A stretch of DNA of 64,000 bases from Bacteroidales bacterium (lineage in GTDB: Bacteria > Bacteroidota > Bacteroidia > Bacteroidales > UBA1402). The stretch covers positions 78,880 through 142,879 of the forward strand of contig JAQVXI010000002.1 of assembly GCA_028709215.1 (NCBI GenBank), in the 5' to 3' direction. The notes beneath the pieces are model-generated. The model was given only the letters and a program-made list of their open reading frames with translations. It was not told the DNA's origin and ran no database searches. The position numbers were made by a program, and so were the translations under genes. Each line of letters begins with the position of its first letter. Positions within the stretch are counted from its first letter, which is position 1. Shown here in pieces: positions 2,067 through 28,485 of the stretch.

Positions 2067-2587
2067 TCGATCAAACGGAAGTTTTCCCTATTGGGCATTT
2101 TTATAAAGTACACGGTGTAAGCGGTGAGCTGGGACTATCGTTTGAGACCGATGTTTTCGATCGAAGTCCGGCACCGTATTGGGTCATTGAGATTGAAGGT
2201 ATTTTGGTTCCCTTTTTTATTGATTCCTACCGCTTCATCGGCAATGCTTCTGCACTGATACGCTTGGAGGGTGTTGATACAGCGGATCGCGCAAAAGCCT
2301 TTGTTGGTCGACCGGTCTTTTTCCCGAGAGCTTATGCAGAGCCGGATGATGCGGTTGAAACCGGCTGGTCTCAACTCATCGGTTTCCAAGTATGGGATCT
2401 CAATAGGGGTTGTATTGGAGAGATAACCGCTATAGATGAATCTACGATGAATGTTTTGTTGATTGTAGAGCAAGAAGGTGTTGATCATTTGTTGCCTGCG
2501 CAAGCTGATTTTATACAAGAAGTAGATGCCGAAAATCAGCAGATTCGTGTTCAATTGCCCGAAGGTTTTCTGGATTTACAAGCATGA
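2063..2587 (+). CDS. rimM: 16S rRNA processing protein RimM
   Basis: 174 aa. The N-terminus reads PIGHFYKVHGVSGELGL (RimM N-domain) and a PRC-barrel-like C-terminal half follows. ATGA start/stop overlap with murA. Confidence 0.85.
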   Translation: MIDQTEVFPIGHFYKVHGVSGELGLSFETDVFDRSPAPYWVIEIEGILVPFFIDSYRFIGNASALIRLEGVDTADRAKAFVGRPVFFPRAYAEPDDAVETGWSQLIGFQVWDLNRGCIGEITAIDESTMNVLLIVEQEGVDHLLPAQADFIQEVDAENQQIRVQLPEGFLDLQA

Positions 2588-3351: not shown

Positions 3352-3412
3352 GTAGTTTTCAGCCGGTTTGCGCATTTTTTCTGTTAAATTCGCCCAACAA
3401 TTAAGAACATCG

Positions 3413-4288: not shown

Positions 4289-4290
4289 GC

Positions 4291-5445: not shown

Positions 5446-5462
5446 TTAAAAACAATTGTTCT

Positions 5463-6845: not shown

Positions 6846-6864
6846 TCTAGGGCAAATGACTTGG

Positions 6865-6912
6865 GGTGTACAAAATGCCATTTTCTGTGTGGTAAATTGT
6901 ACACCTCTTTTG
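6865..6912 (+). terminator. Candidate intrinsic terminator after rseP
   Basis: GGTGTACAA (6865-6873) pairs with TTGTACACC (6897-6905). An inner extension (UGCCA / UGGUA, including one G-U pair) leaves a ~9-nt loop. CTCTTTTGTG follows. Folded by eye only. Confidence 0.5.
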
Positions 6913-6928
6913 TGATAATTCTTTTAAA

Positions 6929-6945
6929 ATCCTGATAATCAGGAT
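6929..6945. promoter_or_regulatory. Perfect 17-bp palindrome ATCCTGAT-A-ATCAGGAT upstream of the PUL; candidate operator
   Basis: Two 8-bp arms flank a single central base, which is too tight for an RNA hairpin loop. It lies ~70 nt upstream of the only -7 box before the GH28 gene. TGATAAT also occurs 20 nt upstream (6913-6919). Confidence 0.3.
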
Positions 6946-7015
6946 GGTTTAACCGGTGGCGATTTGAGTGCTTCTTTCTGAACGTTTGACGCACCCCGTT
7001 GCGATTCATTCATGG

Positions 7016-7023
7016 TATATTTG
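7016..7023 (+). promoter_or_regulatory. Bacteroidota -7 promoter box (TATATTTG) for the PUL
   Basis: It matches the TAnnTTTG consensus of Bacteroides-type sigma-A promoters, 27 nt upstream of ATG 7050. I found no well-spaced -33 TTTG. Confidence 0.4.
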
Positions 7024-7049
7024 TTTCAAGTGATGAAACATTTTATATC

Positions 7050-8495
7050 ATGATTAAAACACGGATTCAACGCCCGGTCTTTCTAAGCATCATTCTGCTT
7101 GTTTTGCTCGCTTCTTGTACGAAAAAGGAGCTTCGAAACGGTATACCCAATTTTTCTTGGATTGAAGAGGTAGGAGCCAAACGTTTTCCTACGCAGGATC
7201 ATACCCCCATTTCAGTAAATGATTTCGGTGCGGTTGCCGATACGTCCATCATCAGCACACAAGCCATACAGGCTGCCATCGATGCTTGTGCCGCTCAAGG
7301 CGGTGGTAAAGTCGTGTTTGAAGCAGGTGATTATTGCAGCGGTTCGATTTTTCTTAAATCCGGCGTGCAGTTGCATTTGGATGAAGGTGTCCGTCTTTTT
7401 GGCAGCCAGAACCTAACGGATTATCCATTGATGCCTACTCGGGTTGCCGGTATAGAAATGGAATGGCCTGCCGGTTTAATTACTGCAGTCAATCAGGAAA
7501 ATGTTGCCCTAACCGGATCCGGAGAAATATGGGGACAAGGAAAAGTATTTTGGGACAGTTACTGGAAATTGAGACAAGAATACGATGTTCAACAGCTTCG
7601 GTGGATAACCGATTATGACTGCATGCGTCCGAGAATGGTATTAATTCAAGATTGTACCCACGCAACCATCCTCGGAAACAAATTTTTTGAAGCCGGTTTT
7701 TGGACCATACATATATTATATTCTTCGCAAGTAACCATCGATGGCGTTTTTATCGACAACAACAACGCAGGAAGGGGACCAAGTACGGATGGTATTGACA
7801 TCGATTCCTCCAATCGGATTTTAGTTCAGAATTGTGATATCAGCTGCAACGACGACAATATTTGTCTCAAGGCAGGCAGAGATGCCGACGGTCTGCGCGT
7901 CAATCGTCCGACTGAATTTGTGATCATTCGCAATTCCATAGCCCGTCACGGCGATGGTTTGTTTACCTGTGGCAGCGAGACCTCGGGTGGCATACGCAAC
8001 GTACTATGTTACGATATGAAGGCCATTGAAACAGAAATTGGTTTGCGGTTCAAATCGGCCTTAAATCGCGGTGGAATCGTAGAAAATATATGGATTGCCA
8101 ATGTTGAAATGATTGATTTGCGCGATGCTTTTCAGATCAATTTAAATTGGAACCCCAATTACAGTTATACGCAATTGCCGGAGTCATTTGAGGGAAAATC
8201 CATTCCCAAGCATTGGCAGGTATTGTTGGAACCGGTTTCACCGGAAGAAGGACTACCACAGATTCGAAATATTTACTTTACCGACATTGTGGCAAGAAAT
8301 TGCAAAGTAGGGATGGTCTGTGAAGGTGTTGAGCAATCACCCATTCGTGATTTTCATTTTACCAATGTTTTCGTACATGCCCAACGTCCGGGTCGAATGT
8401 ATTGGGCTCAAGATTGGACGACCAATAATGTTACGTTTGAATTTGAGAATTCTGCTGCAATGGATATTCAGAATAGTCAGAATGCGCAATTATAA
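7050..8495 (+). CDS. Glycoside hydrolase family 28 lipoprotein (polygalacturonase/galacturonosidase-like)
   Basis: The track ORF starts at TTG 6999. ATG 7050 gives MIKTRIQRPVFLSIILLVLLASC (lipobox). GH28 motifs are present: STDGIDIDSS, CNDDNICLKAG, RHGDGLFTCGSE and LRFKS. The N-terminal QAIQAAIDACAAQGGGKVVF is typical. Confidence 0.85.
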   Translation: MIKTRIQRPVFLSIILLVLLASCTKKELRNGIPNFSWIEEVGAKRFPTQDHTPISVNDFGAVADTSIISTQAIQAAIDACAAQGGGKVVFEAGDYCSGSIFLKSGVQLHLDEGVRLFGSQNLTDYPLMPTRVAGIEMEWPAGLITAVNQENVALTGSGEIWGQGKVFWDSYWKLRQEYDVQQLRWITDYDCMRPRMVLIQDCTHATILGNKFFEAGFWTIHILYSSQVTIDGVFIDNNNAGRGPSTDGIDIDSSNRILVQNCDISCNDDNICLKAGRDADGLRVNRPTEFVIIRNSIARHGDGLFTCGSETSGGIRNVLCYDMKAIETEIGLRFKSALNRGGIVENIWIANVEMIDLRDAFQINLNWNPNYSYTQLPESFEGKSIPKHWQVLLEPVSPEEGLPQIRNIYFTDIVARNCKVGMVCEGVEQSPIRDFHFTNVFVHAQRPGRMYWAQDWTTNNVTFEFENSAAMDIQNSQNAQL

Positions 8496-8525: not shown

Positions 8526-10673
8526 ATGAAAAAAGTCCACCTCTTGTTGCTGACAGCGATTGTTTTGTTGGCCTCTTGTTCCGGCAAAGGCAAACAAGGC
8601 GGTTCCATCGATCGGGAAGCGCTTGTAAAACGGCATCATGTGAACATTCAAACGATTGATTCTTTGTCTTCTTTGTCCGTAGGAAACGGCAATTTTGCAT
8701 TTACGGTTGATGCGACCGGCTTACAAAGTTTTCCCAATTCGTATCGCCTTGGAGTACCTCTGGGCACTCAAGCCCAATGGGGATGGCACAGTTTTCCCAA
8801 CGTACATGGTTTTGAGCCAAAAGATACGTGGAAGGAATACGATTTTCATGGAAAAAAAGAATTGTATGCGACTCAGTTTAACGAAGCGGGTCGTGCACGC
8901 GATGCGGCAAACTACTTGCGCAACAATCCCCACCGGTTGCATCTCGGACACATCGGGCTTCACATGAAACAAAACGACGGAAGTTTGTTTCAACCTTCCG
9001 ATATTCAATCCATTAATCAAACACACAATCTTTGGAACGGATCCATCGAAAGTTCGTTTAAAGCCGGGGAGTATCAAGTGGATGTAGAAACCTTTGTAAC
9101 ACCGGATGCCGATCGGGTTGTTTCCGAAGTACGTTCGACGATGTTTCAAGCGGGAGCAATGTCTGTTTCGTTCCGTTTTGCCTATCCGACCGGCGGACAT
9201 GCAGACGATGCGTGTGATTACAGTAAACCCGATGCGCACAGCAGTAAAATGATTGCTTCCAATGAAAATCTTGCCTTGATTGAACGCACGTTGGACAACG
9301 ATGTCTATTATGTATTGGTACAATGGGAAGGAGATGCTCAATTAAGAGAAACGGACAAACACGTGTTTGAACTGACGCCTTCGACGGAAACGTTACGTTT
9401 TACGACGGAATTTTTGGCCGCGAAACCCAATCTGGATACCCTTGATGCAATTGCGTTTGATGCCGATGAAACCCATACCACACAATGGTGGAATGCGTTT
9501 TGGATGCGTGGTGGTGCCATTGATTTTTCGGATTGCACCGATCCGCGTGCCTTTGAATTGGAGCGCAGAGTGGTTCTTTCTCAACATCTTATGAGTATTC
9601 AATCGGCCGGTATGTATCCTCCACAGGAAACCGGACTGACCTACAACAGTTGGTATGGCAAATTCCATTTGGAAATGCATTGGTGGCACGGAGCTCATTT
9701 CGCGCTTTGGGGACGTCCCGATTTGCTCGAACGCAGCTTGGATTGGTATAATACAGCATTACCCGTTGCAAAATCCATTGCAGAACGACAAGGCTGGAAA
9801 GGTGTTCGTTGGATGAAGATGACCGACCCATCCGCCTTGGAAGCGCCTTCAAAAGTCGGTTCTTTCCTGATTTGGCAACAACCCCACATTATATATATGG
9901 CGGAATTGATGTACCGAAGCAATCCGGACACATCGGTGTTGAATCATTACAAAACATTGGTCTTCGAAACCGCCGAATTTATGGCTGACTTTGTGGACTA
10001 CGAAGAAATTGAAGATCGGTATGTATTGAAAGGAGCCATTCCTGCACAGGAAACCTTGCGTGCTTCCGAAACGGTCAATCCTCCGTTCGAATTAAGTTAT
10101 TGGCATTATGCTCTGTCTACTGCACAGGCCTGGCGTGAACGTTTGGGCATGGAGAAGAATATGGAATGGGAAATCATTCTCGATAAACTATCGCCTCTGG
10201 CGCATCAGGATGGCTTGTATCTTGCAGCCGAAACGGCTTTGGATACCTATGTAGACACACGTTTTACGTCCGACCATATGGCTGTTTTGGGAGCTCTGGG
10301 TATTATGCCGGAATCTCGTCTGGTGCGCAAAGACATCATGACCAATACCTTCAACTGGATTTGGGATAACTGGAACTGGGGTAAAACCTGGGGATGGGAT
10401 TACCCGATGACTGCCATGAGTGCCGCTCGTTTGGGCATGCCGGAACAGGCCATCGGAGCACTTTTGATGGATAAACGTACCAATACATACCTTGTGAATG
10501 GTCACAATTATCAGGACGGTCGTCTGCGTGTGTATTTACCGGGTAACGGTGGTTTGTTGACAGCAGTTGCCATGATGTGTGCCGGTTGGGACGGAAGCGA
10601 AGGGGATGCCCCCGGCTTCCCCAAAGATGGTACATGGAATGTACGCTGGGAAGGTTTGCAACCCATGCCTTAA
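8526..10673 (+). CDS. 715-aa lipoprotein of unknown family; N-terminal beta-rich region plus C-terminal W/H-rich helical region (possible (alpha/alpha)6 glycosidase)
   Basis: Lipobox LLASC|SGKG. The C-terminal ~400 aa is rich in aromatic residues and looks helical (ELERRVVLSQHLMSIQSAGMYPPQETGL, WYGKFHLEMHWWHGAHFALWGRPDLLERSLDWY, FLIWQQPHIIYMAELMY). It sits between GH28 and the secreted proteins of the PUL. The coding call is confident; the function is a guess. Confidence 0.6.
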   Translation: MKKVHLLLLTAIVLLASCSGKGKQGGSIDREALVKRHHVNIQTIDSLSSLSVGNGNFAFTVDATGLQSFPNSYRLGVPLGTQAQWGWHSFPNVHGFEPKDTWKEYDFHGKKELYATQFNEAGRARDAANYLRNNPHRLHLGHIGLHMKQNDGSLFQPSDIQSINQTHNLWNGSIESSFKAGEYQVDVETFVTPDADRVVSEVRSTMFQAGAMSVSFRFAYPTGGHADDACDYSKPDAHSSKMIASNENLALIERTLDNDVYYVLVQWEGDAQLRETDKHVFELTPSTETLRFTTEFLAAKPNLDTLDAIAFDADETHTTQWWNAFWMRGGAIDFSDCTDPRAFELERRVVLSQHLMSIQSAGMYPPQETGLTYNSWYGKFHLEMHWWHGAHFALWGRPDLLERSLDWYNTALPVAKSIAERQGWKGVRWMKMTDPSALEAPSKVGSFLIWQQPHIIYMAELMYRSNPDTSVLNHYKTLVFETAEFMADFVDYEEIEDRYVLKGAIPAQETLRASETVNPPFELSYWHYALSTAQAWRERLGMEKNMEWEIILDKLSPLAHQDGLYLAAETALDTYVDTRFTSDHMAVLGALGIMPESRLVRKDIMTNTFNWIWDNWNWGKTWGWDYPMTAMSAARLGMPEQAIGALLMDKRTNTYLVNGHNYQDGRLRVYLPGNGGLLTAVAMMCAGWDGSEGDAPGFPKDGTWNVRWEGLQPMP

Positions 10674-10705: not shown

Positions 10706-13264
10706 ATGAAAAAGATCGCCTTCATGATGATGCTGTTGTTGGCCTCGGTTGGTTTTACCGCCCAGGCTGCAACATGGGACTTTGCCAACAAAGGTTTTAG
10801 TGATGCCACCAAAGCCAACTTGGCCGCCGATGCCGCCAATTGGACGGTGAACAACGAGAATCGTTTTACCAATACCACAACCATGTCCGGTGAGCTGATG
10901 GCCAATGGCGTAATCATACCGGAGACTGCTGGAATCTTTTTTGGTTCCATGTCTTCCGGCAAACTCAATATAGACCATGGATACGTACCGCCTCGTGTGA
11001 TGTTGAACGGATCCAATCTAACCTTTTCTTTTAAAGATTTGGAAGCCGGACAAACGATTACACTCGTTACGATGACAGCGAATACTTCTTCTTCGCGCGG
11101 AATTACGTGTTCCAGCAACAATGCAACCCGCATTGCCGGAGAGGAAACATCACTAGAAGAAAATATCAATGTCTTTCAAGTAAATGAAGACGTAGAAGGT
11201 CCGGTAGAAGTACAGTTTAAGACCCTCGTGGGTGGGATTCACATACGATCCGTGACCATCGATGGAGGAGCAATTGATCCGGATGCACCCATTAAGATTG
11301 CCTATTTGTTTGATTCATCGTATGCAAACGGAACCTCACTGGTTGGAACCGAAGAAGATATGATTCTTCAGTATGGTTTGATGCAGAAGGATGTGGTCTC
11401 TATTGACGTAAAAGATCTTACGGATGCCACCAATCAGGTTTTTGTGGATTCACTTGCCGGTCTTCAGCGTAACTACGATGTCGTCGTCATCAGTGAAGCC
11501 ATCTCCAGTAGCCATGCCTTTGGTAAAGCCTTGGTTCATTTGGTCAATCGTGTGCCCATGTTGAATTTAAAATCTTTTTTTTACAAGAGTTCTGTTTGGA
11601 ATTGGGGTTCCGGTGTCAATCCTACCAGTGTGAATAAAGGAGAAGCCGGTGTGACTTCGGTGCAGGTAAACCCTGAATTTCTTGAACATCCCATTTTTGA
11701 AATGGTCGATGTTGAAATGGGCTTGGAATTGTTTACCGGTGATGTCACCGATAAAAATCTGGTTCAGGCGTACACGCCCAGTGCGGGAAGTTTGATCGAA
11801 ACCGACGCCGTACTTGCAACGGTTACAAACGGTACGGATGTATATAATGCGATTCATGAGCATGGTAGTAGCAACGTTTATATGTTGATACCGATGTCAT
11901 CCGATGCATCGCAAACTGTATCTGAGTCGGCCATTCAATTGGTTTTCAATGCTGCGGTATATTTGGCCTCTACAAAAAGTACGGTTGTTCCAGCGGGTAA
12001 ACCCGTGGTTGGTATCGAGTATCGTGACGGTATCAGCATTGTACGCATGTCTTCGTCGACGCCCAGTGCAAACATATATTACACCTTGGATGGAACGGAA
12101 CCTACTGAAGCCAGCCTTTTGTACACCGAACCGTTGCAAATAACTCAGTCGGCTACGGTCAAGGCGATTACAATCCTGCAAGGTTACGACAACAGCTCAG
12201 TGGCGACCGCCGAAGTGCTTGTTAAGACGCAGACTGCAGTACCCGTCGTGAGTATGATCACGATTGAAGGCAATCAGCTCATTCAATTGTCGGCCACGGA
12301 ATCTGCCCGCATTTTTTATACGCTGAATGGAGCCGCTCCCGATACGTTGACAGCTGAGTTCTATACGGAGCCTTTTGTGGTATCCAGACCCAGTCTGTTG
12401 CGTGTAATTGCCTCCGTTTCCGGACAGTTGGTTTCTGAGATTGTTTCGGATTCAGTTCATATCGATGGATATGTCTTACGCAACAAAACGTTGGTTTGGG
12501 CCAATTTTAGCGACCAACCCACTGTTTGGCAATGGGGAGAAGGTAGCAGTACTGGAGATGTGGTCTCAAAATATGCCTATACACTGCCTACCGATGACGA
12601 TCCGACATTAACACCGACTTTGACGGAAGTCGATTTCTTAAATGGTTTTAAAGTGGGCACTTATGGCCAACGCATCAATTTACAGAATACAGGTGTAGCC
12701 GAATCCGGCAATTATAGCCCTGCCTCCGAAGGCGATTTGGGTGCCAGTTCCTTTGCCATGTCCTTTTTGACCACCAATGCCAGTTCCGACCCCACAACGG
12801 CGTATATGGTAACGACCGAAGCGTATGCAGGGCCGTTTGACGTCACGGTTTGGTTTACAGGAGCCAAAAGTACCTCTTACACCGAAAAGCTGGAGATTTC
12901 TATTGCTTCAAGTTTAGATGCTACCGAATGGACGGTATTGGATACCTTGTCGTCAATTGGAGACAAGCTGATCCGTAAGCAAATAGCGTATTACGATTCG
13001 AGCGCTCCGGTTTACGTAAAATTGGCCTCTGCGTCTCAATTGGGAACCAACAGCAACATGATGATTTTTGATCTGAAACTGATGGGTGAGGGTAGCGACC
13101 CCGTTGCGTTGGATCGGACCACGCTGAATAAGACTTTGGTATCGACACGCATCTTTACCGTCGCTGGAACAGAGATTAAAAACTATACGGAAGGAATCAA
13201 TATCCTTCGGAAAACGTATTCCGATGGTTCGGTTCAAATAGAAAAGAAATTGATTAAACAGTGA
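10706..13264 (+). CDS. Secreted multi-domain protein A (852 aa): SP - D1 - D2 - 2x chitobiase/hexosaminidase-C-like repeats - D3 - short T9SS-like C-terminal tail
   Basis: Signal peptide MKKIAFMMMLLLASVGFTAQA. The repeats carry IYYTLDGTEPTEASLLYTEPLQITQSATVKAI and RIFYTLNGAAPDTLTAEFYTEPFVV. The tail reads LVSTRIFTVAGTEIKNYTEGINILRKTYSDGSVQIEKKLIKQ. It is collinear with the next gene. Confidence 0.85.
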   Translation: MKKIAFMMMLLLASVGFTAQAATWDFANKGFSDATKANLAADAANWTVNNENRFTNTTTMSGELMANGVIIPETAGIFFGSMSSGKLNIDHGYVPPRVMLNGSNLTFSFKDLEAGQTITLVTMTANTSSSRGITCSSNNATRIAGEETSLEENINVFQVNEDVEGPVEVQFKTLVGGIHIRSVTIDGGAIDPDAPIKIAYLFDSSYANGTSLVGTEEDMILQYGLMQKDVVSIDVKDLTDATNQVFVDSLAGLQRNYDVVVISEAISSSHAFGKALVHLVNRVPMLNLKSFFYKSSVWNWGSGVNPTSVNKGEAGVTSVQVNPEFLEHPIFEMVDVEMGLELFTGDVTDKNLVQAYTPSAGSLIETDAVLATVTNGTDVYNAIHEHGSSNVYMLIPMSSDASQTVSESAIQLVFNAAVYLASTKSTVVPAGKPVVGIEYRDGISIVRMSSSTPSANIYYTLDGTEPTEASLLYTEPLQITQSATVKAITILQGYDNSSVATAEVLVKTQTAVPVVSMITIEGNQLIQLSATESARIFYTLNGAAPDTLTAEFYTEPFVVSRPSLLRVIASVSGQLVSEIVSDSVHIDGYVLRNKTLVWANFSDQPTVWQWGEGSSTGDVVSKYAYTLPTDDDPTLTPTLTEVDFLNGFKVGTYGQRINLQNTGVAESGNYSPASEGDLGASSFAMSFLTTNASSDPTTAYMVTTEAYAGPFDVTVWFTGAKSTSYTEKLEISIASSLDATEWTVLDTLSSIGDKLIRKQIAYYDSSAPVYVKLASASQLGTNSNMMIFDLKLMGEGSDPVALDRTTLNKTLVSTRIFTVAGTEIKNYTEGINILRKTYSDGSVQIEKKLIKQ
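11288..11980 (+). repeat. D2 module, copy in protein A (aa ~195-425)
   Basis: IKIAYLFDSSYA...YDVVVISEAISSSHAFGKALVHLVNRVPMLNLKSFFYKSSVWNWG...NAIHEHGSSNVYMLIPMS. It aligns by eye with both D2 copies of protein B. Confidence 0.7.
11996..12466 (+). repeat. Tandem pair of ~77-aa chitobiase/beta-hexosaminidase C-terminal-like (Fn3-associated) domains in protein A
   Basis: Each repeat has the pattern (I/R)(Y/F)YT(L)(D/N)G..P....(L/F)YTEP..(I/V)......(K/R)(A/V)I....G...S.V. The equivalent pair in protein B lies at 14755-15228. Confidence 0.7.
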
Positions 13265-13299
13265 TTATAACCCTTATTTCTAACCCAAAACAAAAAAAG

Positions 13300-16041
13300 A
13301 TGAAAAAGAAAAATTTACTCTTTCTTTTTGCGGCGTTGCTTTCTGCAACGAGTTTGTTTGCACAGAAACGCGTCGCGTATGTGTATCAAACCGGCTACAA
13401 TGTGAGCCGGTATGTCTGGGATGCAGAAGGCTACAAGCCTACTCTGGATCCGGTTTACAACGGAATCGCAGCCACCTATGAGGTGACCGATTTTGTGTAT
13501 GCAAGTGCGGATGCACCTGATTTGGAGACCCTTAAAACCTATGATTTAGTTGTTTTGGCTGAAGCCATTTCTGGTGGGTCCGCTTTAGGTAATGCCTTAA
13601 AAGATTTGGTAGGACAGGTTCCGGTATTAAGTCTGAAAGCATACAACTACACCAGTGGTCGTTGGTCTTGGGCAGCTCCGACCAATCCGGCAGCCAAAAC
13701 CCCTTCGGTAACCATCAATCCGGGTTTCGAAAGTCATCCGATTTTTGATGGAGTCACCGGAGCAGGTGGTTTGGTTGAAATCTTTGACGGAACAAACACA
13801 GATAACAACCAGGTTCAAGGGTTTACGACCTTGATTGATGGTGGTTTGATTGAAGCCGACAAAATTATGGCCAACATCACCGGAACGACCACGTCTGCCA
13901 TCCATGAAATCACCACGTTGGATCACAAATATATGTTGATCCCAATTTCAAGTGATGTGTGTACGACCGTTTCTCCCAATGGAGTTAAATTGGTTTTGAA
14001 TGCCTGTGCATACCTAATGGGTGGTGCCGGTGGCTTTGACCCCGATGCTCCGTTCAAAATTGCCTACTTGTATGATTCTTCGTATGCAACCTATGTTGGT
14101 ATTGCCGAGGATCCCATTTACAACTATTCTATTTTGGCAGAAAAAGAAACCGAAGCCATTGATATCAAAGACTTCACGGCTGCTAGTACAGACACCTTAG
14201 CTGCTTTGGAAGGCTACGACTTGATCGTAATCTCAGAAGCCATGGCTAGTGGACATGCATTTGCCAAACCATTGCTGACGTTGGTGAATCGTACCCCTGT
14301 ATTGAATTTCAAATCGTTCTTCTACAAAAATACGGTATGGAATTGGGGAGCAGGAGCCAATCCTTCCTCGGTTAAAACGGTCGATGGTGTGAATGTGATC
14401 AACGTCGCTTCTACCGCCGTCAATCATCCGTTGTTTGAGAACATCGAAGTCATCGACGGTCAAATCGAATTGTTCAACAATGCTGCCGGTGTAAACAAGA
14501 ACATGGTTCAAGGCTATACGGCTTCTGCCAGTGGCCCGATTGCCAACGACAGTGTTTTGGCAACCGTAACTGGTCCTGCAGGAACGTACAATTCCATTCA
14601 CGAACATGGATCCAGCAACATTTATATGTTGATCCCGATGTCTGTGGATGCCTTGATGTGGAACGAAGACATCAATGTATCGGACAATGCCTTCCAAATG
14701 ATTAGCAACGCAGTATATTATTTGTTGGAATCCAAAGGAACGGTTTATCCGGCTGCAGTACCCAGCATGAGTGTTTCGTATGGTGACGGCGTTTCGTATG
14801 TCAGCATGACCACTGCAACGGAAGGAGCAACTATTTATTATACGATCGATGGTAGTGAACCGACGACCAGCAGCAACGTATACTCAGGTACAGTCGAATT
14901 GACGGCTTCTGCTACGGTCAAAGCCATTTCTGCCATGGCCGGTTACAACAACAGTACGGTTGCTTCCATGGATGTTCTTGTGATGTCTAAAGCGGCTACA
15001 CCCGTTATCTCCATCACCGCTGTGGAAGGTGGCAAACAAATCAGTTTGTCTGCTGCTGCCGAAGCGCGTATTTTCTACAGCATTTCCGGTGGTGATCCCG
15101 ATACACTGACCGCTACGCTTTATACAGAACCGTTTGTGGTAACACGTCCGGCATTGATTAAGGCCGTTGCTGCCGAAACCGGCAAATTGGTTTCTGATGT
15201 TGCTGCCGATTCGGCAACCATTGATGGGTACATCAATCGTAATAAAACCTTGGTATGGGCCAACTTCAACGAAGAACCTACTACCTGGACTTGGGCAAAT
15301 ACCGATTCAACAACCACCGATAATGGGGATGTTATTTCAAAATATGCGTACACCACCCCAACCGATGTTGATCCACACTTGACTCCTACTTACAAAGAAG
15401 TGGATTTCCAGAATGGATTTAAGGTCGGAACTTTCGGACAACGCATCAATTTGCAAAAGACGGGTATTGCTGAAACCGGTAATTACAGTTTGGCAACCAG
15501 TGGTGATATCGGTGCAACCGATCGTGCCATGTCATTCCTTACGACGAATGCCGGTTCGGATCCAACGACCGCTTTCATGGTAACGACGACCGCTTATGAC
15601 GGACCATTCGATGTCACGGTTTGGTTTACGGGTGCAAAGAGTACCAGCTACACCGAATTATTGGAAGTGTCGGTTGCCAGCAGCTTGGATGCGACCGAGT
15701 GGACGGTATTGGATACGTTGTCCTCCATTGGAGACAAAAAAATTCGCAAACGTGTGGCTTACTACGATGAAAAAGCGCCTGTATTTGTGAAGTTTGCTTC
15801 TGCATCCAATCTGGGAACCAACAGCAATATGATGATTTTTGACGTGAAATTGATGGGTGAAGGAAACGATCCTGTTTCAGTCGAAAATCCGTCGGTTGAA
15901 AAATCCTTGGTTTCTACACGCATCTTTACGGTATCCGGTATGGAAGTGAAAGCTCCTGTATATGGAATCAACATTGTTCGCAATGTTTATTCTGACGGAT
16001 CTGTTGAAACGAAGAAAGTTTTTGTAAACGATCGATTCTAA
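13300..16041 (+). CDS. Secreted multi-domain protein B (913 aa), paralog of A: SP - D2a - D2b - 2x chitobiase/hexosaminidase-C-like repeats - D3 - short T9SS-like tail
   Basis: The track ORF starts at GTG 13261. ATG 13300 gives MKKKNLLFLFAALLSATSLFAQ. Long stretches are identical to A (GPFDVTVWFTGAKSTSYTE, SSLDATEWTVLDTLSSIGDK, LGTNSNMMIFD). The tail reads LVSTRIFTVSGMEVKAPVYGINIVRNVYSDGSVETKKVFVNDRF. Confidence 0.85.
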   Translation: MKKKNLLFLFAALLSATSLFAQKRVAYVYQTGYNVSRYVWDAEGYKPTLDPVYNGIAATYEVTDFVYASADAPDLETLKTYDLVVLAEAISGGSALGNALKDLVGQVPVLSLKAYNYTSGRWSWAAPTNPAAKTPSVTINPGFESHPIFDGVTGAGGLVEIFDGTNTDNNQVQGFTTLIDGGLIEADKIMANITGTTTSAIHEITTLDHKYMLIPISSDVCTTVSPNGVKLVLNACAYLMGGAGGFDPDAPFKIAYLYDSSYATYVGIAEDPIYNYSILAEKETEAIDIKDFTAASTDTLAALEGYDLIVISEAMASGHAFAKPLLTLVNRTPVLNFKSFFYKNTVWNWGAGANPSSVKTVDGVNVINVASTAVNHPLFENIEVIDGQIELFNNAAGVNKNMVQGYTASASGPIANDSVLATVTGPAGTYNSIHEHGSSNIYMLIPMSVDALMWNEDINVSDNAFQMISNAVYYLLESKGTVYPAAVPSMSVSYGDGVSYVSMTTATEGATIYYTIDGSEPTTSSNVYSGTVELTASATVKAISAMAGYNNSTVASMDVLVMSKAATPVISITAVEGGKQISLSAAAEARIFYSISGGDPDTLTATLYTEPFVVTRPALIKAVAAETGKLVSDVAADSATIDGYINRNKTLVWANFNEEPTTWTWANTDSTTTDNGDVISKYAYTTPTDVDPHLTPTYKEVDFQNGFKVGTFGQRINLQKTGIAETGNYSLATSGDIGATDRAMSFLTTNAGSDPTTAFMVTTTAYDGPFDVTVWFTGAKSTSYTELLEVSVASSLDATEWTVLDTLSSIGDKKIRKRVAYYDEKAPVFVKFASASNLGTNSNMMIFDVKLMGEGNDPVSVENPSVEKSLVSTRIFTVSGMEVKAPVYGINIVRNVYSDGSVETKKVFVNDRF
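13366..14025 (+). repeat. D2a module, extra and degenerate copy in protein B (aa ~23-242)
   Basis: KRVAYVYQTGYN...YDLVVLAEAISGGSALGNALKDLVGQVPVLSLKAYNYTSGRWSWA...SAIHEITTLDHKYMLIPIS. The order of conserved blocks is the same as in D2, but DSS is replaced by QTG and HEHG by HEIT. Confidence 0.65.
14053..14733 (+). repeat. D2b module in protein B (aa ~252-478), positional equivalent of A-D2
   Basis: FKIAYLYDSSYA...YDLIVISEAMASGHAFAKPLLTLVNRTPVLNFKSFFYKNTVWNWG...NSIHEHGSSNIYMLIPMS. Confidence 0.7.
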
Positions 16042-16051
16042 TGTAATCCAA

Positions 16052-16097
16052 CTGCAAAGGGCGGTAGATTCTTTCTGCCGCCCTGTGCAGTTCTTTT
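16052..16097 (+). terminator. Strong intrinsic-terminator-like hairpin inside the PUL, between protein B and the PL1 gene
   Basis: CTGCAAAGGGCGGT (16052-16065) pairs with GCCGCCCTGTGCAG (16077-16090), giving 12 Watson-Crick pairs, 1 G-U pair and 1 mismatch around an 11-nt loop. TTCTTTTAAT follows. Confidence 0.6.
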
Positions 16098-16112
16098 AAT
16101 GCACACATTCAA

Positions 16113-19100
16113 ATGAAACGGAACTTAATCCTATTTCTAATCACGTTCTGTCTTTTTTCCATCACAGAAGCACAGACCAGTCAACTGGCCTTTCCCGGAG
16201 CAGAAGGTTTCGGAAAGTATGCCGTAGGCGGTCGTTACGGCTCTGTCTATCGTGTAACCAACCTAAACGACTCAGGTACAGGTTCATTGCGGGATGCAGT
16301 GAGCAGTTCCAATCGAATTATTGTTTTTGAGGTGGCTGGAGTGATCAACATAAACAGCCCATTAGTTTTTTCAAACAACTTATACATTGCCGGACAAACT
16401 GCTCCGGGTGAAGGTATTGTAATCTACGGAGATCGATCTTCGTTCTCAGGAGCCAGTAATACCATTGTGCGCCACATACGCTTTCGTATGGGCAAAGGAG
16501 GTGCTTCGGGTGCCGATGCCGTGGGCATCGCAAACGGTACCCATATGATTTTTGACCATGTTTCTGTTGCATGGGGTTTGGATGAGACCTTCTCTATTTC
16601 TCCCGATAACAAAGGAGCATTGGGCAACATCACCATTCAGAATTCCATCATCGGCCAAGGCTTGCTTTCACACTCTGCAGGCGGACTTATTCAAGCCGAC
16701 AACATCACACTATATCGCAATTTGTACGTAGATAACTCTACGCGCAATCCCAAAGTCAAAGGGAAGAATCAATACGTAAACAATATTGTATACAATTGGA
16801 AAAATGCAGCCTACATCATGGGCGGTGAATCTACCGGTGATGCTTATTGCAATGCCGTTTCCAATCTGTTTATCAAAGGACCCTCCGGAGGAAGTGTTGC
16901 TTTCAGCGGTGGAAACTCCTTATTCCATCTGTATGCTGCCGACAATTGGGTCGACAAAACGGCAGACGGTAACTTGTCTCCCTATTTAATCCCCAACGCT
17001 GAATATTCGGGTGGACCGGATTTTCAGTCACAACCCTACGATTATCCACAATTGCCTACATGGACGGCCAATCAGTTGGTAGACTCCTTGCTTCCGGTTG
17101 TAGGAGCCAGTCTGCCGTATCGTGATTTGGCCGATTGGTATATGGTCAATGAAGTGCGTTCGTTTGGATTGGAGGGCAAACTCATTTCAGAAGAAAATCA
17201 ATTGCCCATCGGCATTCCGAGCAGTTGGACCTTCTGGTCCGGAATCGCTCGTGCGGACCGTGATCAGGATGGCATGCCCGATGCATGGGAAATAGCCAAC
17301 CAATGCAATCCGGATGTCAATGATGCAATGACCATTGCCGATAACGGCTATGCCAACATTGAAAATTACATCAACAGCATTGATGTAGAAGATCGTCAAG
17401 CCTTTTTGCGTGCGCCGCTCGCCGTTTCTTTACAGGTATCGACTTCATCCAGTCTGACCATCGCTTGGTTGGATTATACGGAAGGAGAGGACGGTTTTGT
17501 AGTAGAAGCCAAAACGGATGCCGATTATGTGGTGATGGCTCAGGTAGAGGCTGGTGTACAATCGGTCACTCTCAACGATCTCCAACCGGCAACCGCTTAC
17601 ACGATACGAATCAAATCGTTCCATTCGGAACGTTCGTCCGAATATACTTCGGAGCAGACGTTTAAAACACAACCCGAGGAAGTCCCGGTCATTGATCCGA
17701 ATGCCTATGTTCCGGACTTAACCTGGTCTGCCGAGTCCGGTATTTGGGACTATGCACAACTCAATTGGAACGATGGAAGCAAAGCCTTTCAAAAGGGGGA
17801 CTCCCTCTTATTTCAACCCTTGAGTGATATTCAAGTTCAATTGAACGATAGTTTGGAAATTGGTGCACTCGTGGTTAAAGATGATGGAAACGTTGCTTTT
17901 ACCGGAACCGGTGTGTTGACCGGTAACGGATCCGTCAATAAAGCCGGAGCCAGCACACTCTCGTTGGGTGACCAACACGTCTATACAGGTGCCAGCGTCC
18001 TATCTGAAGGTACATGGATGCTTTCTTCTTTGCGTGACGGAGGTTTGTCCAGTTCGTTGGGTGCATCCCAGGAATTTGCACAAAATTGGATCTGGAAGGG
18101 TGGCGTATGGAACTATACCGGAGCAACCACCGCAACCAATCGCAATGCGACTTTGTATGGAACATCTACATTTGCCATTTCAAATCCAGCGACTACGGTT
18201 ACATTGAATGGAGCGTTGGAAGGAACCGGTGGCATGATTTTGGATGGAGCAGGAACCTTGCGCATCAATCAGGCATTTGCTTACGAAGGCAATACGGTAC
18301 TAAAAGGTGGTACGTTGTATATTGAGGGAGCCAGTTTGATCGATCAAGGCATCGGAACCTCTCCAAAATTGGTCATGGCCGGTGGTTCTTTTAAAACCAA
18401 AGATTCCAACGATCGTTATGGCGTATACAGTTTCCCGATCGAAGTGCTTGAAGGAACCTATTCTACCCTTTACGTACACAGAAATTGCTCCATCAAATCT
18501 AAGGTGAGCGGTTCGGGTACGTTGGAATACCAGGTAAACTATCTGCGTGAGTATGTTACCGGAGATTGGAGAGACTTTACCGGACACTTAGTGGTCAACG
18601 GAGTAAACTCCAAAGCAGGTGAATGCCAATTCATGTTGTTAAATGGGAATGGTATACCCAATGCGACCTTGTATACTAAAGGAAACGTTCAAATCGTCTG
18701 TTGGTCTACATCCGCAACCTATTATTTGGGCGGATTGTCGGGAGATCCTTACACGTATTTGTCCGGTTCCAGCAAGAATACGACGTCGGCTCAGATGAAA
18801 TGGGTTGTCGGAGGTGCAAATACCGATGAAACCTTCCGTGGAATTATCGACAACCGATGCAGTGCAAGTAGTTACAATGGCACAACATCGATTGTAAAGA
18901 CCGGTGAAGGACTTTGGCGTTTGACCGGAATCAATGTATACAAAGGAACGACTGAAGTTCAGCAAGGCAAATTGATCGTCAACGGGAACCACACCGGTTC
19001 AGGCGCCGTAACGGTGTCTAATGGTGCAGAGCTGGCCGGTGAAGGCAGTTTAAGTGGTCGCGTGACCTTGTTGGACGGCGCCTTGTTGCGCGCCGGCGAT

Positions 19101-19700
19101 ACAATCGTTGACAACAAGATGTTGAACTTGAGAGGCGGATTGACCTTGTCTTCTACGTCTGTGACTCAAATACCCCTATTGAAATCCAGTCCAATCACCC
19201 GCAAGGCAAATCAAATTGTCGTAAACGGAACGGCTGTGTTGAATGGGACACTTCAATTGAATTTGGATCAGATCAGCTATCCACTTCAAAAGAACAACTA
19301 CTTTGACGTGTTTGACTTTTCCAATGCGAGTGTTACCGGAACCTTCTCTGACATATCACCGGCTACACCGGGCGAAGGTCTGATTTGGGATCTGACTTCT
19401 TTGTATACGAATGGTCGCATCTATGTACGCGAAGAAGGATGGGTCAGTGTGCCTCAGATCGGTTTGGAGGATACCGACGTGTATCCGACGATGGTTACCG
19501 ATCATTTATCGGTTCAATTGCCATCAACCGTTGCGGAAGCGAGGGTTGATGTGCTGGATCTGACCGGTGTTGCACACATACAAACGGCCATTTCCGGTTC
19601 TGCATCCATCAATACCTCCGATTTGGCTTCAGGCATGTATATCCTACGCCTGAGCCAATCCAATGGTAAGACGGTTACGAGAAAGATTATGAAGCAATAG
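16113..19700 (+). CDS. PL1-type pectate lyase fused to FN3, autotransporter-associated beta-strand (PATR) repeats and a canonical T9SS type-A C-terminal sorting domain
   Basis: Signal peptide, then AFPGAEGFGKYAVGGRYGSVYRVTNLNDSGTGSLRDAV, MIFDHVSVAWGLDE and NSTRNPKVKG (PL1-like). A Ca-binding-type DRDQDGMPDAWE motif follows. FN3 covers aa ~434-519 (nt 17412-17669). PATR units include GSVNKAGASTLSLGDQHVYTGASVLSEGTWML, GGMILDGAGTLRINQAFAYEGNTVLKGGTLYI and IVKTGEGLWRLTGINVYKGTTEVQQGKLIV. CTD details are in the next feature. Confidence 0.85.
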   Translation: MKRNLILFLITFCLFSITEAQTSQLAFPGAEGFGKYAVGGRYGSVYRVTNLNDSGTGSLRDAVSSSNRIIVFEVAGVININSPLVFSNNLYIAGQTAPGEGIVIYGDRSSFSGASNTIVRHIRFRMGKGGASGADAVGIANGTHMIFDHVSVAWGLDETFSISPDNKGALGNITIQNSIIGQGLLSHSAGGLIQADNITLYRNLYVDNSTRNPKVKGKNQYVNNIVYNWKNAAYIMGGESTGDAYCNAVSNLFIKGPSGGSVAFSGGNSLFHLYAADNWVDKTADGNLSPYLIPNAEYSGGPDFQSQPYDYPQLPTWTANQLVDSLLPVVGASLPYRDLADWYMVNEVRSFGLEGKLISEENQLPIGIPSSWTFWSGIARADRDQDGMPDAWEIANQCNPDVNDAMTIADNGYANIENYINSIDVEDRQAFLRAPLAVSLQVSTSSSLTIAWLDYTEGEDGFVVEAKTDADYVVMAQVEAGVQSVTLNDLQPATAYTIRIKSFHSERSSEYTSEQTFKTQPEEVPVIDPNAYVPDLTWSAESGIWDYAQLNWNDGSKAFQKGDSLLFQPLSDIQVQLNDSLEIGALVVKDDGNVAFTGTGVLTGNGSVNKAGASTLSLGDQHVYTGASVLSEGTWMLSSLRDGGLSSSLGASQEFAQNWIWKGGVWNYTGATTATNRNATLYGTSTFAISNPATTVTLNGALEGTGGMILDGAGTLRINQAFAYEGNTVLKGGTLYIEGASLIDQGIGTSPKLVMAGGSFKTKDSNDRYGVYSFPIEVLEGTYSTLYVHRNCSIKSKVSGSGTLEYQVNYLREYVTGDWRDFTGHLVVNGVNSKAGECQFMLLNGNGIPNATLYTKGNVQIVCWSTSATYYLGGLSGDPYTYLSGSSKNTTSAQMKWVVGGANTDETFRGIIDNRCSASSYNGTTSIVKTGEGLWRLTGINVYKGTTEVQQGKLIVNGNHTGSGAVTVSNGAELAGEGSLSGRVTLLDGALLRAGDTIVDNKMLNLRGGLTLSSTSVTQIPLLKSSPITRKANQIVVNGTAVLNGTLQLNLDQISYPLQKNNYFDVFDFSNASVTGTFSDISPATPGEGLIWDLTSLYTNGRIYVREEGWVSVPQIGLEDTDVYPTMVTDHLSVQLPSTVAEARVDVLDLTGVAHIQTAISGSASINTSDLASGMYILRLSQSNGKTVTRKIMKQ
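19473..19697 (+). other. Canonical T9SS type-A C-terminal sorting domain of the PL1 protein
   Basis: DVYPTMVTDHLSVQLPSTVAEARVDVLDLTGVAHIQTAISGSASINTSDLASGMYILRLSQSNGKTVTRKIMKQ. It contains the YP..(V/A) start, the G(M/I)Y(I/L) motif and the K(I/L).K ending typical of Por/T9SS CTDs. Confidence 0.8.
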
Positions 19701-19729
19701 CATATTACAAAAATTACAAATCAAAAACT

Positions 19730-21994
19730 ATGAGAAATCCCAGATTCAAGTATCTGATGATCGGAATCTTGTCGCTTCCCTGGCTTTTTATGTCCTGTAA
19801 GGACAACATGGACGACCATTATGCGATCCCCGATTGGTTAAAAGGCAGTGCATACGAAGTACTGTTATCAGAAGGTGATTATTCCATTTTTCTGGAAGGA
19901 ATTGATAAGGCCGGTTACAAGCCCATTGTCAATGGAAAGAGCATTTTGACCGTGATGGCACCCAATGATTCTGCATTTACGGTTTATCTGAACGATAAAG
20001 GATATGCCGGTATTTCAGACATGCCGGAGGTTGAGTTAAAAAAACTGATTGGTTTCCACTTAATGTATTATGCATTTGATTGGAACAAACTGGTCAATTT
20101 CCGACCTGCTGAGGGCGATGGTGCAACGGAAGAAGATAAGGCGCAATTTGCCGGCTATTATTTCAAACACCGTACCAAAAGTATGGATCCCGTTTCACGG
20201 GAATACAACTCCATTCTTGGTGATTCCGTATCCGTGTATCATTTTGAACGGTTTTTGCCCGTCTTTTCCTATCAGATGTTCCAGACCAAAGGAATTGATG
20301 CTGCGTCCAATTACGAATACTTCTTCCCCAACTCAACGTGGACGGGTGGAAGTACCGGATTTAATGTGGCAAATGCCAGCGTGCTCAATACAAGTAATGT
20401 AATTACGGATAATGGTTACGTCTACTTTATTGATCAGGTTTTGGAGCCGCTTGAAACCATTTACACCGAGCTCAAAAACAATTATGAGGAGTATTCCATC
20501 TTCTTTGATTTGTACAACTCCTCATCAACGTATGAATTGGATGCGGAGATTACGCGTGACTTTGGTGATGGTGAAGACCTGTACCTACACAGTCACAGTG
20601 GCTTGTTGAACATCGCCTATGAATGGCCTACGTCCAACTATGCTGCGATCGTTGACCTCTCCAGTGTGTGTTACAACATTTTTGCACCTTCCAATACTGC
20701 GTTGACCAACTTTTTTGATTCCTTCTGGAAAGCGGGTGGTTACAACAGCTTGAATGAGTTGGATCCCTTGGTGTTGGAATATTTGATCGCTCAATCCTAT
20801 GCGAACGATACACGTCCGGTTTTCCCGGATGACATTCGCAGCGGTAAGGTTAAGACGGTATTGGGCACACCGGTTGTGTTGAATCCGGAAGATGTAAGCT
20901 TGCGTCGCTTCTGTGTAAACGGTACCTTGTATGGGATTGGCAACATGACTGCACCGGCCATCTTCTCATCGGTAGCCGGCCCTGCATTCAAGTACTTGGA
21001 TTATCGCAACTACCTGTATGCGCTGGATGGATCCGGATTGTTGTTGGCGCTTGCCTCACAGGAAAGTCAGTTCATTACGTTGATGCCGGACACGGCACAA
21101 TTGGCAACCGAACGCATCCGTTTGGCCGAACTGACGACCGGTAACCGTCTTCAAATATTTTCAGACGATGCCGGAGCGTATGTGGATATGTCTGAGAGTG
21201 AAATGTCTAGCATTGTAAACATTCACTTGGCGAGTGGCGTGTCTGAATTAAAGACATCCGGTATTCAGGTATTGGAATCCAATACCGCCTTCAACTACTG
21301 GTATGTCGTAGATGGTAAGATAACAACCAATGCCTTATTCAATCAATACCTGACGCCTGAATTTACGGGTGACCCCTTTGTTGCGTTTACAGAAATTAAA
21401 AACGGAGCATCCACTTGGGACAATGGACGCGCCTACAGTTATGCGTTCGACGGTTTGTTTAAATCGGATGCAGGGGATGGTCTGGAATACACCCTGGCCA
21501 TTGCAAATGATACGCGTTATCCTTACTACATGTTTTCGCAGCTGCTGCAAAAAGCCGGTTTGGTTGATGGTACCGAGCTGACACATTTGATGCCGGATAC
21601 GCGTTTTATCGCATTTATTCCAAGCAACGAAGCCATCAAGGCACGATTGAGCGAAATACCGGGTGCAGACAGATTGTCCGTTACAGCAGGTGGCTCGTTG
21701 AGCGGAACCCTATCCAGTACCAATAAAACGAAATTGGCCAAATGGTTGCGTTCATACTTTATTACTTCCGATCTGAATACGTTTACGCAATATCCGTATC
21801 CAGGATCTTCGGTCAAAGGCGATTATGACACCTATGGTGCAGATAATATGCATGTTGTGGATACCGGAAGTAGCTTGCAAGTGAAATTTCAGGCTTCTGA
21901 AGCAGCCACTGTGTCGGTCGTATCGACCTTCCACTTCCTTCCTTTTGCGTATAAGGACGGCTGTTTTCATGTGATTGAAGATATACTATTGTAA
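19730..21994 (+). CDS. Surface lipoprotein with four fasciclin (FAS1)-like domains
   Basis: Lipobox LFMSC|KDNMDD (acidic +2..+6). FAS1 H1/H2-like motifs recur: LTVMAPNDSAFTVYL / GYVYFIDQVLEPL, NIFAPSNTALTNFF, ITLMPDTAQLA, and IAFIPSNEAIKARL / GCFHVIEDILL at the C-terminus. Confidence 0.8.
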   Translation: MRNPRFKYLMIGILSLPWLFMSCKDNMDDHYAIPDWLKGSAYEVLLSEGDYSIFLEGIDKAGYKPIVNGKSILTVMAPNDSAFTVYLNDKGYAGISDMPEVELKKLIGFHLMYYAFDWNKLVNFRPAEGDGATEEDKAQFAGYYFKHRTKSMDPVSREYNSILGDSVSVYHFERFLPVFSYQMFQTKGIDAASNYEYFFPNSTWTGGSTGFNVANASVLNTSNVITDNGYVYFIDQVLEPLETIYTELKNNYEEYSIFFDLYNSSSTYELDAEITRDFGDGEDLYLHSHSGLLNIAYEWPTSNYAAIVDLSSVCYNIFAPSNTALTNFFDSFWKAGGYNSLNELDPLVLEYLIAQSYANDTRPVFPDDIRSGKVKTVLGTPVVLNPEDVSLRRFCVNGTLYGIGNMTAPAIFSSVAGPAFKYLDYRNYLYALDGSGLLLALASQESQFITLMPDTAQLATERIRLAELTTGNRLQIFSDDAGAYVDMSESEMSSIVNIHLASGVSELKTSGIQVLESNTAFNYWYVVDGKITTNALFNQYLTPEFTGDPFVAFTEIKNGASTWDNGRAYSYAFDGLFKSDAGDGLEYTLAIANDTRYPYYMFSQLLQKAGLVDGTELTHLMPDTRFIAFIPSNEAIKARLSEIPGADRLSVTAGGSLSGTLSSTNKTKLAKWLRSYFITSDLNTFTQYPYPGSSVKGDYDTYGADNMHVVDTGSSLQVKFQASEAATVSVVSTFHFLPFAYKDGCFHVIEDILL

Positions 21995-26817: not shown

Positions 26818-26824
26818 GTTCCAT

Positions 26825-28474: not shown

Positions 28475-28485
28475 TACTGAATGCT

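Follow-up and report, generated by a model that had tools for sequence, protein, structure and literature searches.

Class-I glutamine amidotransferases build their active site from three elements: an elbow that carries the nucleophilic Cys, an oxyanion-hole loop, and a His-x-Glu pair. In peptidase family S51 (dipeptidase E and cyanophycinase), an amidotransferase-like fold hosts a Ser-His-Glu hydrolase. The surface glycan-binding proteins (SGBPs) of Bacteroides, among them the SusE/F-like proteins, SGBP-B (7kwb), and BT2857 (7m1b), bind glycans through beta-sandwich domains, and we know of none with an amidotransferase-like domain. We analyzed a stretch of 64,000 nucleotides from a Bacteroidales bacterium (GenBank assembly GCA_028709215.1, contig JAQVXI010000002.1, positions 78,880 to 142,879 of the forward strand), hereafter called the window, in which two adjacent genes of a pectin polysaccharide utilization locus (PUL), A and B, encode three copies of a module that we call D2 (A-D2, B-D2a, and B-D2b). 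D2 represents a new variation on a known fold, that of the class-I amidotransferases, and we tentatively propose that it recognizes pectin.

An original prediction, made from the DNA of the window, read D2 as an alternating beta/alpha module of either the flavodoxin/ThuA/amidotransferase (GATase1) type or the SGNH type, and structural comparison bore out the first of these guesses and not the second. We modeled A-D2 with AlphaFold2 from a 41-sequence family alignment (pLDDT 94.7, pTM 0.92), and when the model was compared with the PDB by Foldseek, the significant matches among the 50 listed were all class-I glutamine-amidotransferase-like (probability 1.0, E 9e-6 to 6e-4, TM 0.5-0.7, 8-14% identity). 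They included the glutaminase domain of CTP synthase (E 9e-6), gamma-glutamyl hydrolase (TM 0.60), the ThuA-like protein 4jqs (TM 0.62/0.59, rmsd 4.5 A, 10% identity), and the amidotransferase subunit of GMP synthetase (target-normalized TM 0.70). Besides the alpha/beta/alpha fold itself (TM up to 0.62 query-normalized and up to 0.70 target-normalized), D2 shares with the class-I amidotransferases and C26 peptidases, including PuuD, a C-terminal helix and the strand-elbow-helix element that follows strand beta4 (strand 91-93 and then helix 96-99 of A-D2, as assigned by DSSP). Three stretches of D2 (YDVVVISEA, VPMLNLK, and YMLIPMSSD) are presumably faint echoes of the amidotransferase motifs PDGIILSGGP, PxLGxC, and YGVQFHPE. 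D2 does resemble the SGNH enzymes of family CE12 in its three-layer alpha/beta/alpha structure and in having a Ser near the point where strand beta1 ends, but it lacks the invariant Ser of block I and the DxxH of block V, and its His residues occur as HxH within a beta-strand. No SGNH structure was found among the 50 matches listed, and the GDSL profiles (PF00657 and PF13472) gave no match at E<=1 in A, B, the three modules, or 41 family domains; as a positive control, the same library detected a GDSL domain encoded next to a D2 gene in a related locus (L019) at E 6e-27. The SGNH fold was ruled out by the amidotransferase-like matches together with the absent GDSL match.

D2 departs from the enzymes of its fold class at the active site. 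A-D2 contains no cysteine, its elbow carries a Lys (K95), and a S204-S205-D206 loop appears to stand in place of the His-x-Glu pair. The S51 peptidases have a Ser at the elbow, whereas the residue that follows K95 in D2, S96, is variable (S/A/T/M). The amidotransferases are also cytoplasmic, whereas D2 is predicted to be secreted and is embedded in surface proteins. As judged from the model, D2 is firmly assigned as a GATase1/ThuA-like domain without the Cys-His-Glu triad. The ThuA-like protein 4jqs (BACUNI_01602 of Bacteroides uniformis), which is among the best TM matches and also comes from Bacteroides, likewise lacks the triad and, like D2, has no assigned molecular function. The ThuA-like profile PF06283 gave no match at E<=1 in A, B, the three modules, or 41 family domains, and the ThuA passages of PMC8121099 tie ThuA to trehalose/3-keto-disaccharide metabolism, not to pectin, and hold no mechanistic lead for D2. 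The module has no sequence match in Pfam, NCBIfam, or the PDB, and 41 isolated family domains showed no consistent match to any Pfam family. The amidotransferase profile PF00117 matched one of these 41 domains faintly (E 0.2), hhalign of the family profile against the amidotransferase domain of E. coli GuaA gave a probability of 0.1%, and searches of PDB sequences with a 3-sequence profile, a 41-sequence profile, and full-length A returned nothing relevant. The pectinesterase profile PF01095 (CE8) had no match in A or B; CE8 enzymes are beta-helix proteins, whereas D2 has an alpha/beta fold.

An exhaustive HMMER search recovered at least 504 representatives (clusters at 50% identity) at E<=1e-3, 275 of them at E<=1e-10, and at the sequence level D2 is firmly established as a large unannotated family of domains that are predicted to be secreted. 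We found no description of the domain in the searchable literature, and word-index protein searches returned only a near-identical fragment (P0001) from a Bacteroidales metagenome-assembled genome (MAG) and a B-like fragment (P0002). When 61 members were scanned with Pfam for partner domains, the pectin-related fusion partners were one PL11 rhamnogalacturonan lyase, one GH88/105, one CE8, and one CBM77, and the others were only Ig-like, Flg_new, Fn3_assoc, fn3, Big, and cadherin-like repeats and tails of the type IX secretion system (T9SS). In one set of 44 of these members, the Pfam partners were limited to Ig-like repeats and T9SS tails. D2 occurs once in 134 of 151 family proteins, twice in 14, and three times in 3; tandem copies had been considered as a sign of a binding module, and this argument was dropped in view of the many single-copy proteins.

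To place the module in its genomic context, we scanned one genome per species with an 8-sequence close alignment as the query, which biases the recovered loci toward close relatives. This yielded 30 related loci, all from Bacteroidales (rumen and gut MAGs, Prevotella, and the cultured strain Bacteroides salyersiae DSM 18765). In 17 of the 30, the D2 gene lies inside the same pectin locus as in the window, in one of two arrangements. The first runs from GH28 through the gene for a 715-aa protein, A (in some cases with B), PL1, and a fasciclin gene to SusC; the second has GH105 followed directly by A (again with or without B), PL1, fasciclin, and SusC. The enrichment of the D2 family in pectin loci is firmly shown, and whatever its activity, the family represents an unrecognized component of pectin processing in rumen and gut Bacteroidales.

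Conservation among 82 full-length copies of the module pointed to a family-wide site. In the numbering of A-D2, the residues E70 (93%), P90 (96%), K95 (94%), Y99 (95%), W104 (99%), S204 (85%), D206 (87%), and N221 (89%) are conserved, and W106, N111, P112, N157, and Q160 are likewise conserved, with N111, N157, and Q160 falling inside the span given in the table. Of the 82 copies, 64 have the E-K-Y-W-S-D set unchanged, among them all three in the window; these conserved residues are held down to about 25% identity, and the six are lost jointly in decayed copies. According to DSSP, K95 is at the junction between the elbow strand and its helix, E70 comes right after strand 65-68, and S204 and D206 are in the loop that follows strand 198-203. 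We infer from the topology of the model that the six residues lie along the C-terminal edge of the sheet, in the position of the amidotransferase active site: K95 would stand at the nucleophile elbow, E70 in the oxyanion-hole loop, and S204-x-D206 at the place of the His-x-Glu pair. A mean-field covariation analysis (203 sequences, effective number 176), which has low power and is phylogenetically confounded, recovered sensible strand contacts (beta1-beta2, beta1-beta3, beta3-beta4, and the 174-192 hairpin), and among its 21,949 pairs it placed N111-N157 at rank 11, K95-S74 at rank 13, E70-K95 at rank 16, S204-Q160 at rank 81, and E70-D206 at rank 88.

A second cluster belongs to one sub-lineage, here called D2b, which includes A-D2 and B-D2b. 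We defined an HxH subgroup as the 31 copies that have both H190 and H192; D173 is present in 100% of them and N196 in 90%. D173 lies opposite H192 in the register of the hairpin, and H190 covaries with D173 (rank 39) and with Y99 (rank 34). It is a speculation from the model that D173, H190, and H192 come together as a second, possibly metal-binding, site of the D2b sub-lineage. In a clade of three proteins (P0040, P0045, and P0049), K95 has been lost along with E70 or S204 and HxH has been retained, which indicates that the two clusters are separable. The strongest covariation in the family is between S74 and V103. The D2b lineage combines N87-R/K88 with V103, and other family members combine G87 with R103 ("SGRW"); from these sequences, it looks as though an Arg close to the conserved site has moved from one backbone position to another.

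We favor the interpretation that D2 forms a putative pocket for a pectic sugar unit, and we put its probability at roughly 0.4. The conserved cluster, flanked by N111, N157, and Q160, would form this pocket in all three copies, and A and B would be surface proteins of the beads-on-a-string type that are exported by the T9SS and engage pectin for the neighboring PL1 and GH28 enzymes and the SusC/SusD transporters. A mixture of Asp, Glu, Asn, Gln, and Lys with Trp and Tyr is typical of sugar-binding pockets. We counted this residue make-up, the beta-sandwich surface architecture, and the adhesin-like relatives in favor of binding rather than catalysis, and we counted the pectin-locus context and the PL11, GH105, CE8, and CBM77 fusions in favor of pectin recognition. 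Like the Bacteroides SGBPs, A is PUL-encoded and consists of a signal peptide and a string of beta-sandwich and Ig-like domains, and the fold neighbors of full-length A are generic multi-beta-sandwich proteins that include the glycan-binding proteins 7kwb and 7m1b; the difference is that the known SGBPs use their beta-sandwich domains for binding. If D2 does bind pectin, it would be, to our knowledge, the first carbohydrate-recognition module with an amidotransferase-like fold.

Several observations weigh against a binding function. Six polar and aromatic residues conserved at 85-99% fit a catalytic or cofactor site at least equally well. The D2 domains have a highly acidic composition (pI about 4.4, net charge -10 to -15), which makes binding to polyanionic pectate awkward without bridging Ca2+; charge-driven pectate binding of the CBM77 type was rejected as a simple model for this reason. 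Three fasciclin-domain proteins of the locus already take the places where surface glycan-binding proteins are usually encoded, and A and B lie in its enzyme block and have no other candidate catalytic domain. GH105 enzymes rarely carry binding modules, and a fusion to GH105 suits a co-acting enzyme better. Finally, 13 of the 30 related loci have none of these pectin genes within flanks of up to 10 kb on each side, some of the contigs ending sooner.

The alternative that survives best, although we consider it doubtful, is that D2 is a new catalytic domain that acts on pectin as an esterase/deacetylase, a lyase, or a hydrolase. The site would be either the family-wide E70/K95/Y99/S204/D206 or, in the D2b lineage, a metal held by D173, H190, and H192 as in an Asp-His-His metallo-deacetylase, which would make A and B enzymes and both types of D2 active. 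Catalysis would account for the strong conservation of a six-residue polar set across deep divergence and its loss as a unit, for the apparent placement of K95 and S204-x-D206 at catalytic positions, and for the complete conservation of D173 alongside H190 and H192. The fold is capable of such chemistry, as the Ser-His-Glu hydrolases of family S51 illustrate. A and B stand among enzyme genes in a locus that lacks CE8 and CE12, and D2 is their only domain that is not a beta-sandwich (in the full-length model of A, it is the sole alpha/beta domain, the remainder being beta-sandwich and Ig-like). The PL11, GH105, and CE8 fusions resemble known multi-catalytic pectinase fusions, and the single copy in most family proteins also suits an enzyme. 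On the other side, D2 has no known catalytic motif, no enzyme family was found to be related to it in sequence, and the family consists mostly of giant, repeat-rich, adhesin-type surface proteins. D173 and HxH are absent from most of the family and are kept in the clade that has lost K95, so that both sites cannot be essential to one reaction. If D2 were catalytic, it would found a new enzyme family in which an unusual Lys/Ser/Asp set replaces the Cys-His-Glu triad.

An esterase in particular had been proposed because the locus encodes PL1, GH28, and GH105 enzymes and no CE8 or CE12 esterase. This inventory holds at the level of Pfam for the window genes that were scanned, which comprise the locus and nearly all other large open reading frames (ORFs), and no recognizable esterase is encoded in the window locus. 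The conclusion drawn from the inventory fared less well. In the syntenic locus L019, the product of a gene at 5457-6887 (+) combines a GDSL/SGNH domain with an alpha/beta-hydrolase (Peptidase_S9-like) domain; the gene stands where the window has GH28, directly upstream of the gene for the 715-aa protein and then the D2 gene. An esterase and a D2 ortholog can thus coexist, and the argument from a missing esterase is weakened, as it is by the family member that is fused to CE8: in both cases the esterase domain occurs in addition to D2. D2 may still be an esterase of some kind, but nothing that we found speaks positively for such a function.

A more specific form of the catalytic proposal appears unlikely to us. 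It holds that D2 constitutes a new family of carbohydrate-active enzymes, esterases/deacetylases or lyases, in which Lys95, Ser204, and Asp206, with Glu70 and Tyr99, would replace the triad on an amidotransferase scaffold of unchanged active-site geometry, that the D2b lineage would add a metal site at Asp173/His190/His192, and that A and B would supply the de-esterifying or depolymerizing activity that the locus lacks, B with two specificities.

Quite unlikely as well is the possibility that D2 is a ligand-free pseudo-enzyme scaffold, a rigid spacer or oligomerization unit in which a buried E70-K95-D206 salt bridge would have replaced the triad. Non-catalytic GATase1-like domains do exist in carbohydrate-active enzymes such as the GH42 beta-galactosidases. 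Charge pairing could account for the E70-K95 and E70-D206 couplings, D2 is found in very varied surface-protein architectures, and in some loci nothing around it relates to carbohydrates. However, the conservation of the polar residues N111, N157, Q160, and S204 and of the aromatic residues Y99, W104, and W106 is hard to explain by packing alone, and the recurrent association with pectin loci and pectin enzymes suggests a substrate-related role.

The original prediction had placed the active site elsewhere, in the motifs DSS (D9-S10-S11) and HEHG (H190-G193), which were taken as the Ser, His, and Glu of a serine esterase active in A-D2 and B-D2b, with B-D2a as an inactivated duplicate. The translations agree with the positions given for both motifs in both copies, and B-D2a does read YVYQTGYN and IHEITTLDHK at the corresponding sites. 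The presence of the motifs in the two positionally equivalent copies, the confinement of exact DSS to copies with D173, H190, and H192 (18 of the 31), and the lack of CE8 and CE12 in the locus are all in keeping with the proposal, which did not survive the comparison with homologs that the original prediction itself had named as a check. Across the 82 copies, D9, S10, and S11 are conserved at only 34%, 51%, and 32%, and H190, E191, and H192 at 68%, 27%, and 41%. Even in the HxH subgroup, where G193 reaches 84%, the figures are 77% for D9, 81% for S10, 61% for S11, and 35% for E191; S10 and S11 give way to A, K, P, E, T, G, D, or N in between 19% and 39% of these copies, and E191 is replaced in 65% of them by I, L, R, K, T, V, Q, and others. 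The rest of the family lacks the motifs, including the CE8-fused member, which has NST at the DSS position and IFSRGD at the HEHG position.

The geometry is equally unfavorable. H190, E191, and H192 lie within beta-strand 184-192, so that the two His residues should be on one face and E191 should face the opposite side. By topology, the C-terminal edge of the parallel strands would hold DSS, whereas HEH would come at the far end of an antiparallel hairpin strand. Covariation did not link DSS to H190, H192, or D173 (ranks 1,528-19,367 of 21,949); DSS couples instead with D40 and K42, where strand beta2 ends. Moreover, 62 alignment columns are identical in A-D2 and B-D2b but different in B-D2a, and 22 of them hold D, E, H, S, C, or K, indicating that the shared DSS and HEHG reflect the tree ((A-D2, B-D2b), D2a) and not a special property of the motifs. 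DSS and HxHG look like derived markers of the D2b sub-lineage that were gained there and not lost in D2a, and the best explanation of these results is that the functional center of D2 lies elsewhere. A serine esterase built on DSS and HEH is very improbable. These residues would be the wrong targets for mutagenesis; the relevant ones are E70, K95, Y99, S204, and D206 and, separately, D173, H190, and H192.

B-D2a also does not behave as a relaxed derivative. Its identity to the D2a copy of the B ortholog P0003 is 63.6%, compared with 63.0% between the two D2b copies, and the corresponding values are 48.2% and 44.4% for P0006 and 42.5% and 49.3% for P0004. These similar identities indicate that D2a and D2b evolve at the same rate. 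D2a retains 21 of the 22 columns that are conserved at >=80% across the family, and its mean identity to the 42 most distant members (31.8%) is higher than that of A-D2 and B-D2b (about 27.5%). The conservation data firmly mark D2a as a full family member, and the picture of an active domain beside a relaxed copy was given up. In the B-like protein P0006, it is the D2b copy (residues 259-487) that has decayed, with E70 changed to G, K95 to N, H190 to Y, and D206 to E (GN-WSE), and the D2a copy that is intact, which is the reverse of what had been proposed for the window.

That there are three homologous copies of about 225 aa was confirmed by a full-length alignment, in which 57 columns are invariant in all three. 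Identity to A-D2 is 54% for B-D2b and 40% for B-D2a, and even the latter match (BLASTP E = 8e-34) is far past chance. A and B are 59% identical across 677 aa, and B is a paralog of A with a second D2 copy in place of D1. Taken mechanically, the ORF of B begins with GTG 13261, with a 4-base overlap at the stop codon of A; its signal peptide starts with the ATG at 13300, which is the likelier start codon. The domain limits of A were set from DSSP and from the low-confidence linkers of a full-length AlphaFold model (pLDDT 85), and Fn3_assoc/CHB_HEX_C was matched twice by Pfam in its Ig-like region. Both proteins have cleavable signal peptides, as read from sequence, and appear to be T9SS cargo rather than lipoproteins. 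No Por_Secre_tail or TIGR04183 match was found at either C-terminus with Pfam and NCBIfam; the final 41 residues of A and B can be aligned (E 0.001) to the last part of the Por_Secre_tail in the PL1 protein. The D4 domain is well conserved between A and B and had no BLAST match (E<=1e-8) in any of the 30 related loci, not even in those with 40-60% identity across D1, D2, and the Ig domains; the C-terminal domain seems to be swapped among orthologs.

Table. Positions of the pectin locus, of genes A and B, and of the D2 modules and their residues in the window (residue numbers are those of A-D2; domain limits of A are in residues of the protein)
Feature	Position	Strand	Description
Polysaccharide utilization locus	6999-36184	+	Pfam scans; synteny in 17/30 related loci
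715-aa protein	8526-10673	+	Between GH28 and gene A
Gene A	10706-13264	+	852 aa; ORF list
Gene A, domain order			Signal peptide aa 1-21; D1 beta-sandwich 22-186; D2 195-425; two Ig-like domains 434-585; D4 beta-sandwich 592-797; disordered linker; small terminal beta domain/tail 811-852
A-D2	11288-11980	+	D2b-type GATase1/ThuA-like alpha/beta/alpha module, from model, Foldseek, and three-copy alignment
DSS (D9-S10-S11)	11312-11320	+	Loop straight after strand beta1; B-D2b equivalent at 14074-14082
Family-wide conserved residues, span	11495-11905	+	85-99% conserved across 82 copies
E70	11495-11497		Codon in A-D2
S74	11507-11509		Covaries with V103
N87/R88	11546-11551		N87-R/K88 of the D2b lineage
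K95	11570-11572		Codon in A-D2
Y99	11582-11584		Codon in A-D2
V103	11594-11596		Covaries with S74
W104	11597-11599		Codon in A-D2
D173	11804-11806	+	Putative Asp/His/His cluster with H190 and H192
HEHG (H190-G193)	11855-11866	+	C-terminal end of strand 184-192; B-D2b equivalent at 14599-14610
S204	11897-11899		Codon in A-D2
D206	11903-11905		Codon in A-D2
D4 of A	12479-13096		aa 592-797
Gene B	13300-16041	+	913 aa from ATG 13300
B-D2a	13366-14025	+	D2 of a separate conserved sub-lineage; QTG and HEI replace DSS and HEH
B-D2b	14053-14733	+	Equivalent to A-D2 by position and phylogeny
Fasciclin-domain protein	19730-21994
Fasciclin-domain protein	26759-28474		Contains DUF5108
Fasciclin-domain protein	28444-30177
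SprA	38017-45333		T9SS translocon; follows the locus

By Pfam, the order of the locus is GH28, the 715-aa protein, A, B, PL1, a fasciclin protein, and a SusC/SusD pair, followed by two fasciclin proteins (one with DUF5108), a second SusC/SusD pair, and GH88/GH105. The PL1 pectate lyase has 1195 aa and a T9SS tail (Por_Secre_tail), and the T9SS translocon protein SprA is encoded nearby. The locus contains no gene for a hybrid two-component system, an ECF/anti-sigma pair, or another regulator. The 715-aa protein has no Pfam, NCBIfam, or PDB sequence match. Its orthologs in nine related loci are 59-84% identical; in all nine, the gene immediately precedes the D2 gene and, wherever GH28 occurs, stands between GH28 and the D2 gene. 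It is as good a candidate as D2 for an unrecognized enzyme of the locus.

Some of the related loci differ in content from that of the window. In L018 and its relatives, genes for a TonB-dependent receptor, DUF5074 and DUF4465 proteins, a carboxylesterase, and Peripla_BP_2 are found downstream of the D2 gene. This whole set follows the D2 gene in the rumen MAG loci L015, L018, L022, and L024 (around 12300-20400) and looks like a cofactor or metal uptake cluster rather than a glycan locus. In B. salyersiae DSM 18765, a homolog of 1106 aa (L025, 9332-12652) contains D1, D2, and three Fn3_assoc domains and is encoded outside pectin loci, with a gene for Mfa-like fimbrillin, AraC regulators, and fumarate reductase nearby; as this is a cultured human-gut Bacteroides, the homolog offers a possible genetic handle on the family. 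In L010, from a buffalo-rumen Bacteroidaceae MAG, genes at 1774-7079 for a CotH-kinase-like protein with a dockerin and for a protein with an MBG (YGX-type) domain lie upstream of a GH105/D2/PL1 locus; dockerins are unusual in Bacteroidales.

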